Positions 18,348 through 18,628 of a stretch of 64,000 nucleotides of DNA are shown piece by piece. The translations under genes and the position numbers were made by a program. The stretch is taken from positions 84,390 through 148,389 of the forward strand of contig DVOJ01000015.1 of assembly GCA_018713725.1 (NCBI GenBank). Reading direction: 5' to 3'. The notes under the pieces were generated by a model, which was not told where the DNA came from, searched no databases, and was given only the letters and a program-made list of their open reading frames with translations. Within the stretch, counting starts at the first letter, position 1. Every line of letters begins with the position of its first letter. The DNA comes from Candidatus Caccopulliclostridium gallistercoris. Its GTDB lineage: Bacteria; Bacillota; Clostridia; Christensenellales; UBA1242.

Positions 18348-18496
18348 AAAATAAGGTATAACAATTTTAAACTATTATATCTAGATGAGAATTAGATTTA
18401 ACCAAATAAAGCGGCATATAGCAAGGCTCGAAAAGTGCGCGCTTTTTATAAACACAGCTAGATGCCTAATTCTAATTAAAGTAATTACAAAGAATG

Positions 18497-18628
18497 GTCA
18501 AGACACAATAAAGCAAGCCCTGCAAGGCTCGACAAATGAGGCTAGGCAGGAGCGTACATAGACGTACGTGACTGTCTAGCCTCGTTTGGCAGTAAACGCA
18601 GCAGGGCGACGCTTTATTGCGTCTTGAC
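18497..18628 (-). repeat. long-hairpin element family A, copy A1 (1 nt after the stop of 18630..19505)
   Basis: A 132-nt imperfect palindrome with terminal arms GTCAAGAC/GTCTTGAC and internal stems GAGGCTAG/CTAGCCTC and CGTAC/GTACG. It shares the scaffold CAAGGCTCGACAAATG...TGACTGT...CGTTTGGCAGTAAACGCAG with A2 and A3. A collapsed mini-copy lies at 18421..18457. Confidence 0.8.

Follow-up and report, generated by a model that had tools for sequence, protein, structure and literature searches.

The stretch of DNA analysed here, a 64-kb window of Candidatus Caccopulliclostridium gallistercoris (a gut Clostridia MAG), contains one repeat family, represented by three full copies and two deletion remnants. 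An earlier sequence-only reading had described five copies of a long-hairpin element, and all five were found at the places that it gave. Its scaffold blocks, three variants of an 8-bp stem, two apical stems and terminal arms were also confirmed in alignments, and the 16-mer CAAGGCTCGANAAATG has three exact occurrences and one with a single mismatch. The copy limits, however, had to be extended. Alignment of many copies with their flanks revealed that the full unit includes a further conserved 20-nt leader, YAGNNTGTAGACAAATTAAA, upstream of the long hairpin on one side.

The copy c3 occupies positions 57782-57954 on the minus strand (173 bp, CAG...CTG), correcting the limits 57781-57934 assigned previously. 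Read along the minus strand, its parts are the leader TAGACTGTAGACAAATTAAA, an inner repeat TCAGGCTGTTC, the core hairpin P2, the hairpin P3 and the right end AACAGCCTG. The copy c2, 146 bp at 47233-47378 on the plus strand with its leader included, belongs to a subfamily without hairpin P3, its right end being 3 nt away from an ArsP_2 stop codon (gene at 47382-48302, minus strand). The third full copy, c1 (18479-18628, plus strand), is one of what we call c1-type units. Its leader AGTAATTACAAAGAAT is followed by a hairpin at 18497-18628 with arms GTCAAGAC/GTCTTGAC; it has neither CAG/CTG termini nor a flanking duplication, and its right arm is 1 nt from the stop codon of the gene at 18630-19505 (minus strand).

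Two copies regarded earlier as shortened versions are indeed present, and are now read as the remnants of internal deletions. One, at 18381-18466 on the plus strand (18421-18457 in the sequence-only reading), derives from a c1-type unit in tandem with c1. It has lost ~147 bp internally by comparison with strain L152, whose upstream unit is intact and carries an extra module of ~115 nt. The other, c4 (35136-35204, plus strand), retains a partial leader, the inner repeat, CAAGGCTC and the right end, the core having been deleted. It lies between the terminator hairpin of uvrC (35097-35130) and the stop codon of the gene at 35208-35672 (minus strand), with identical spacing in four other assemblies. 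Across the family the elements measure 146-176 bp, or about 280-295 bp with the extra module.

Two features of the surroundings are recorded here as side observations. A second small repeat, AATGACG...TTCGCRRG, adjoins both c1 and c2 (18319-18347 on the plus strand and 47162-47189 on the minus strand; two matches against 0.01 expected by chance), and a sequence resembling it seems to recur in the c2 intergenic region of L160. The window also holds a 3,588-aa ORF (21023-31789, minus strand); an unrelated repetitive surface-type protein of 4,346 aa abuts an element in L158.

Beyond the window, related MAGs and metagenomes from the gut yielded about 40 more insertion sites. A first scan of one genome per species used a 16-base pattern, followed by blastn and nhmmer. 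The pattern proved too short, as most of its 119 loci were chance matches; the true copies, about 30, belong to several MAGs of uncultured gut Clostridia/Firmicutes. Metagenome contigs were then scanned with a more specific pattern, and 26 more stretches came from assemblies of human and chicken gut. Neither the core nor the leader pattern had any match in viral contigs, and plasmids gave no meaningful match to the family. Copies of the c3 type are 82-93% identical across MAGs of different species. Rfam searches at gathering thresholds returned no match to the elements in the window or in five related loci (the window's sole match is a tRNA), and at E up to 10 the elements in the window, in c3 and in the five related loci gave chance-level matches only.

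Termini, flanking hairpins and variation between strains

Copies of the c2 and c3 types have 5'-CAG...CTG-3' termini. Each element contains the 16-bp motif CAGRCTGTWGAMAAA three times, as two direct copies at the left end and one inverted copy at the right end. Most of the c2- and c3-type copies checked are flanked on both sides by a direct duplication of a hairpin whose sequence differs from site to site, with an A-run outside the left copy and a T-run outside the right copy. The leader, the CAG...CTG termini and the flanking duplication are three features that the sequence-only reading did not include.

At c3 the two hairpins lie at 57756-57781 (AAGACGCATTAATTAAAATGCGTCTT, with an A-run before it and, on the minus strand, a T-run after it) and at 57955-57980 (identical to the first over 26 bp, with a T-run after it on the plus strand). 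In a scan for terminator patterns the first was terminator-like on the minus strand only and the second on the plus strand only. Because each is terminator-like in a single direction, transcripts from the convergent genes must, by this pattern, cross the element before terminating.

Locus-specific direct repeats abut both termini at 14 of 24 c3- or c2-type sites, and L129 is a fifteenth duplicated site recognised by eye, our script having mis-parsed it. Of mismatched pairs of flanks, used as a control, 0.5% reach the duplication score. The length of the repeats is 14-35 bp (17-35 bp where the termini can be read directly), and nearly all of them are palindromic: 26 bp at c3 in the window, 18 bp at both L118 and L134, 21 bp at L115 and 35 bp at L144. 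A c2-type copy with flanking hairpins is found at L139:10059-10211. At older sites the flanking hairpin copies have diverged or one of them is gone. As a separate observation, L095:2361-2536 and L144:283-456 are one insertion site in two assemblies; both hairpins of ~35 bp are present in L144, and L095 has lost exactly the right-hand copy. At L137:330-610 the flanking hairpins are reverse complements with inverted loops, rather than direct repeats, which suggests loop flipping after insertion.

Gene context was assessed with a simple ORF caller at 41 distinct sites. The fixed polarity relative to genes that was claimed earlier is true inside the window. Family-wide it is no more than a strong bias: in 36 of the 41, a convergent gene has its 3' end towards the right end of the element. 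Where genes could be called on both sides (37 sites), the neighbours are convergent in 18 cases, co-directional in 17 and divergent in 2. At the co-directional sites the folding strand is antisense in 14 cases and sense in 3 (binomial p about 0.013); more generally, the best-folding strand is usually antisense to the nearest upstream gene. An antisense folding strand fits awkwardly with a simple 3'-UTR role.

Comparison of strains revealed several kinds of variation. At the c3 site the element was present in all strains seen, in either orientation. It was found in strains L120-122, L132 and L148; in L129-L131, in which the glutamate-tRNA ligase is 99% identical (for example L129:3140-3470 compared with window 57756-57980), the whole hairpin-element-hairpin unit after gltX is inverted, loops included, and the element carries an extra module of ~115 nt. 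An inverted unit would result either if the outer stem arms recombined or if the element inserted there a second time, independently. In sister species the ligase gene is followed by one terminator, different in sequence, and the element is absent. The copy c2 is missing from L162 and L163 together with about 200 nt more, so that the alleles differ beyond the element. At L161:2420-2560 the right end of c2 is joined to a c3-like core followed by a different downstream gene (LRR_5), an allele that looks like a rearrangement by recombination between two copies of the element. At the loci compared we recovered no clean empty site, at which a sister strain would have one hairpin and no element.

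The c1-type units, including c1 in the window, keep the core and leader, and are without CAG/CTG termini and without flanking duplications. Each follows, at a distance of 0-7 nt, the stop codon of a gene on the opposite strand, and these genes are unrelated. The units form tandem arrays of two to four units in the same orientation (window 18381-18628; L136:3990-4400; L138:1927-2450; L139:3790-4330; L155:5800-6080; L156:6030-6620). One array fills the spacer between rpsL and rpsG, antisense to the operon. These units appear to have lost the IS-type termini and to have spread locally by tandem duplication.

Some elements carry an optional module of 105-115 nt with covarying hairpins of its own, in the order GGGG.CCCC, hairpin, GGGGAAAAGGAAAAAGC, hairpin, AGCGCAGCTTTTGACG. 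All its occurrences are within these elements, at one or other of two places in the core (L129:3234-3345; L152:7211-7100 on the minus strand; also L156, L136, L080 and L005), and it had no match in Rfam.

Relationship to IS1182-family insertion sequences

The ends of the elements resemble those of known insertion sequences. When the right end is reverse-complemented, the resulting CAGGCTGTTGAAAAAC agrees with the ISCbo5 left repeat, CAGGCTGTTGATAAAC, at 15 of 16 bases, and the outer left end agrees at 13 of 16 with the left repeat of a second, independent IS1182 member, which encodes the protein P0236. Random 16-mers from the window reach 13/16 or more at a rate of 2e-5. ISCbo5 and the P0236 IS both end in CAG...CTGA, like the elements described here. 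We located ISCbo5 on plasmid p3BKT015925 (L173:35704-37320), where its right end is ...TTTTTGAACAATCTGA and a 29-bp hairpin duplication stands on its flanks. The P0236 IS, seen in five copies, has the same anatomy as ISCbo5 and our elements. Pfam domains DDE_Tnp_1, DDE_Tnp_1_6 and DUF772 were detected on P0121 and P0236. IS1182 transposases are very common in Clostridia (7,970 matches).

With the ISCbo5 transposase as query, tblastn found no IS1182 transposase in the window or in the ~1.3 Mb of fetched loci, and tblastn of 120 IS1182 transposases found no coding remnant in the elements, which also have no conserved ORF. A 33-codon ORF behind AGGAG in c3 was set aside, because the subfamilies share neither its reading frame nor its start codon. 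A full-length IS with exactly these ends was not found in the 64-kb window or the ~1.3 Mb of loci. The fetched loci were also searched for pairs of direct repeats, spaced 0.9-2.6 kb apart, that enclose CAG...CTG; the one match was a chance repeat in the gene for the 4,346-aa protein.

IS1182-type ends without a gene identify the elements as non-autonomous MITEs of IS1182 type. Specifically, we conclude, with a probability of about 0.8, that the family consists of non-autonomous, terminator-targeting MITEs built on the ends of IS1182-family insertion sequences of the ISBma2/ISCno1/ISCbo5 group. Their target is a hairpin without primary sequence specificity, as in the IS1182 family, and what is duplicated on their flanks is the whole hairpin, of variable length, as in ISCbo5. 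For the c1-type units, kinship with IS1182 is suggested by one link, the shared core and leader. The sequence-only reading had recognised no named family; the MITE itself does appear to be unnamed, but it belongs to a group that can be described. The reading had also offered a hairpin-dependent mobile element as one of its options. Mobility is supported by the IS1182-type ends, the site-specific duplications and the variation between strains in presence, orientation and internal deletions. The hairpin dependence, on the other hand, mostly concerns the target, a terminator hairpin, rather than the element's own hairpin.

The closest known system is the ISCbo5/ISCno1/ISBma2 group of C. botulinum group III and C. 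novyi, which has CAG...CTG(A) termini in common with the MITE. For ISCbo5 itself, an IS1182-family element of Clostridium botulinum group III, the published ends are 'cag...ctg'; each of its direct repeats comprises an entire hairpin of 15-44 bp at the end of a gene, and the authors of that study took these hairpins to be terminators (PMC3098183, Table S3). The likeness extends from the 16-bp terminal repeat (15/16) and the insertion at gene-end hairpins to the variable whole-hairpin direct repeats (15-44 bp published, 17-35 bp here) and to a hairpin just inside the right end. There are also clear differences. ISCbo5 is 1.6 kb long and encodes a 454-aa DDE transposase, whereas the window elements are 146-176 bp and have no gene. 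At the left end, the terminal repeat of ISCbo5 is followed by an inverted copy, and that of the MITE by a direct copy. The MITE interior (the CAAGGCTCGA... core) has no counterpart in ISCbo5 or the P0236 IS, the two IS1182 members examined.

Other systems share some of these traits. In staphylococci, IS1272/TnSha1 of the IS1182 family targets terminator hairpins at gene 3' ends without primary sequence preference and in either orientation, with repeated insertions in one hairpin (PMC4923244, PMC5678879). IS1272 differs in that it is reported to delete or replace part of the hairpin without duplication, whereas here the hairpin is duplicated. The IS1182-derived MITEs of Methanosarcina acetivorans, whose partner is ISMac2, are likewise short (160-169 bp) and non-autonomous; in contrast, they are archaeal, have duplications of 0-4 bp, and have been described without hairpin targeting or a conserved internal fold (PMC3852290). 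The Correia/NEMIS elements of Neisseria, the pneumococcal RUP, BOX and SPRITE elements and bcr1 of Bacillus cereus are also small, intergenic and formed of long hairpins, are often co-transcribed with their neighbours and in some cases show structure-preserving changes (see also the review PMC10969869). They differ in end sequences and partner IS families, in their short fixed duplications (e.g. TA; TTTAT for bcr1) and in the absence of terminator-hairpin targeting.

The following mechanism would account for the arrangement. A transposase supplied in trans by a full-length IS would recognise the 16-bp CAGRCTGTWGAMAAA repeats and insert the element at an intrinsic-terminator hairpin, cutting on either side of it; the anatomy of the sites is observed, and the chemistry is our conjecture. 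Cuts that flank the hairpin would lead to duplication of the whole hairpin, with the A-run remaining to the left and the T-run to the right. Each gene would then have, as its nearer hairpin, a copy deprived of the T-tract, and transcripts would, judging from the pattern scan, read across the element and end at the more distant copy. In this way the element would come to lie in 3' UTRs with termination preserved. DDE transposases usually make duplications of fixed length, and we know of no established mechanism for a duplication length that is defined by a hairpin.

Several other sources of such elements were considered and set aside. The IS1202 family came into question for its long duplications, and was excluded because its ends start with TGT, as opposed to CAG here. 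Casposon or Cas1-like integration, Tc1/IS630 (TA duplication), ISAs1, retroposition primed by a terminator U-tract and hammerhead-like self-cleavage at CUGA were rejected on duplication length, on the identity of both flanking hairpins or on missing motifs, each failing at least one of these. An IS200/IS605-type PATE or a REP/RAYT element was rejected given the terminal repeats and long duplications and the lack of a fixed flanking oligonucleotide, where such elements insert beside a fixed tetra- or pentanucleotide. A group IIC intron, which would have group II ribozyme domains and would enter downstream of a terminator with no duplication of it, was rejected because no intron model matches, the elements measure 146-176 bp and the hairpin is duplicated.

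Fold and covariation of the interior

Each full copy had been proposed to fold into a long hairpin, and this is borne out by the folding energies on the better strand: -82.1 kcal/mol for c1 (z = -12.8), -71.3 kcal/mol for c2 (z = -10.1) and -67.4 kcal/mol for c3 (z = -7.7), with none of 200 shuffles as good. The better strand is 9-17 kcal/mol more stable than the other.

The suggestion of structure-preserving divergence also holds across the larger family. In the 25-pair core helix of 31 distinct cores, 95.7% of cells are paired, compared with 75.8% in shuffles, and pairing falls to 36-44% when partners are slid by one to three columns. Changes on both sides have occurred at 17 of the 25 core pairs, and 0 of 500 shuffles reach the covariation score; these counts come from sequences related by subfamily and are not independent events. 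Among 23 full c3-type copies, P1 (the end repeats), P2 (the core) and P3 all covary. The covariation of P1 taken alone could reflect ends that co-evolve to suit one transposase.

The pairs that are not Watson-Crick are distributed very unequally: 103 are G·T and 4 are A·C in the core alignment (88 and 7 when full-length copies are aligned). Three positions each hold a fixed wobble in 27-30 of the 31 cores. An internal GA/GA loop occurs in c1 and the c3-type copies, with GC/AA at that place in c2-type copies. The stability advantage of the better strand arises because the G·T wobbles sit on one strand, together with the fixed wobble positions and the GA/GA loop. An asymmetry of this kind between G·T and A·C is impossible from double-stranded DNA or from arm-to-arm correction, and thus indicates that one strand is constrained in single-stranded form, as RNA or ssDNA. 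The constrained strand would most likely be RNA. A search for promoters inside the elements found no convincing one.

Alternative explanations and implications

The features of the interior raise the possibility that the elements are host-selected structured non-coding RNAs, themselves not mobile, in which the copies are genes or UTR modules and the paired hairpins are their own transcription signals. Strong covariation in three helices, wobbles on one strand (103 versus 4), conserved unpaired blocks with the tandem GA/GA internal loop, the placement of copies at gene 3' ends and the identity of c3-type copies across species' MAGs (82-93%) all argue in this direction. Counter to this, flanking hairpins that match within a site and differ between sites are the signature of insertion, and the termini are homologous to the IS1182 inverted repeats. 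Moreover, neighbouring genes are unrelated, copies have been gained, lost, inverted and recombined between strains, there is no Rfam match even at E up to 10, and in most places the strand that folds runs antisense to the gene it abuts. We consider a non-mobile RNA family improbable. The RNA and mobile-element readings are nevertheless compatible, in that a mobile element can carry a selected RNA.

It is somewhat more improbable again that the elements are simply palindromic DNA repeats whose covariation is a mutational by-product, caused by template-switch correction between the arms and by ends that co-evolve with transposase binding. Arguments for this case are that P1 consists of the terminal repeats, which must co-vary to suit one transposase, that long inverted repeats are known substrates for arm-to-arm correction, and that the subfamilies are few, so many of the 'double changes' are inherited and not independent. 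Correction of arms, however, is blind to strand and gives perfect complements. It cannot yield 103 G·T against 4 A·C pairs, nor hold three wobble positions and a GA/GA loop fixed across subfamilies, and P2 and P3 covary although they are internal and not end repeats. A fold specific to one strand and a hairpin target could instead point to a single-stranded DNA hairpin element moved by an HUH/Y1 enzyme (an IS200/IS605-type PATE, or REP/RAYT-like), or to a small terminator-targeting retroelement similar to a group IIC intron, and a variable duplication length would suit two independent nicks. Yet IS200/IS605 and REP elements are without terminal inverted repeats and target duplications, and the copies here have both; no group II intron or other ribozyme model matches, and 146-176 bp is far too small for an intron. 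Since the ends match an IS family with a DDE transposase, this explanation is largely refuted, and we regard it as very unlikely.

Returning to IS1182-type MITEs, terminator-targeting IS1182 elements are already known, and the strand-specific conserved interior is the remaining loose end. One tentative answer, which we hold to be possible but rather doubtful, is that the interior is a functional RNA domain, a cargo that the MITE plants in the 3' UTRs of convergent genes. The proposed domain would comprise the core hairpin with its three fixed G·U pairs and GA/GA loop, the unpaired blocks CAAGGCUCGA and CAGUAAACGCAG and the optional module of ~110 nt. If this is correct, such an RNA might control the parent transposase, block dsRNA formation between convergent read-through transcripts or bind a host protein, and the c1-type tandem arrays after stop codons would be domesticated copies.

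What seemed to be an unrecognised structured-RNA family thus appears to be a transposon derivative of defined pedigree. This matters for annotation, as each insertion cuts a terminator hairpin off from the T-tract and puts a stable ~170-nt hairpin into 3' UTRs. For this reason the elements could pass for sRNAs, riboswitch-like motifs or terminators in these MAGs. The IS1182 family picks terminator hairpins by shape and duplicates them whole, and of its traits this is the least understood. On this trait, uncultured gut Clostridia now supply over 40 natural insertion sites, which can help studies of how hairpins are read by a DDE transposase.
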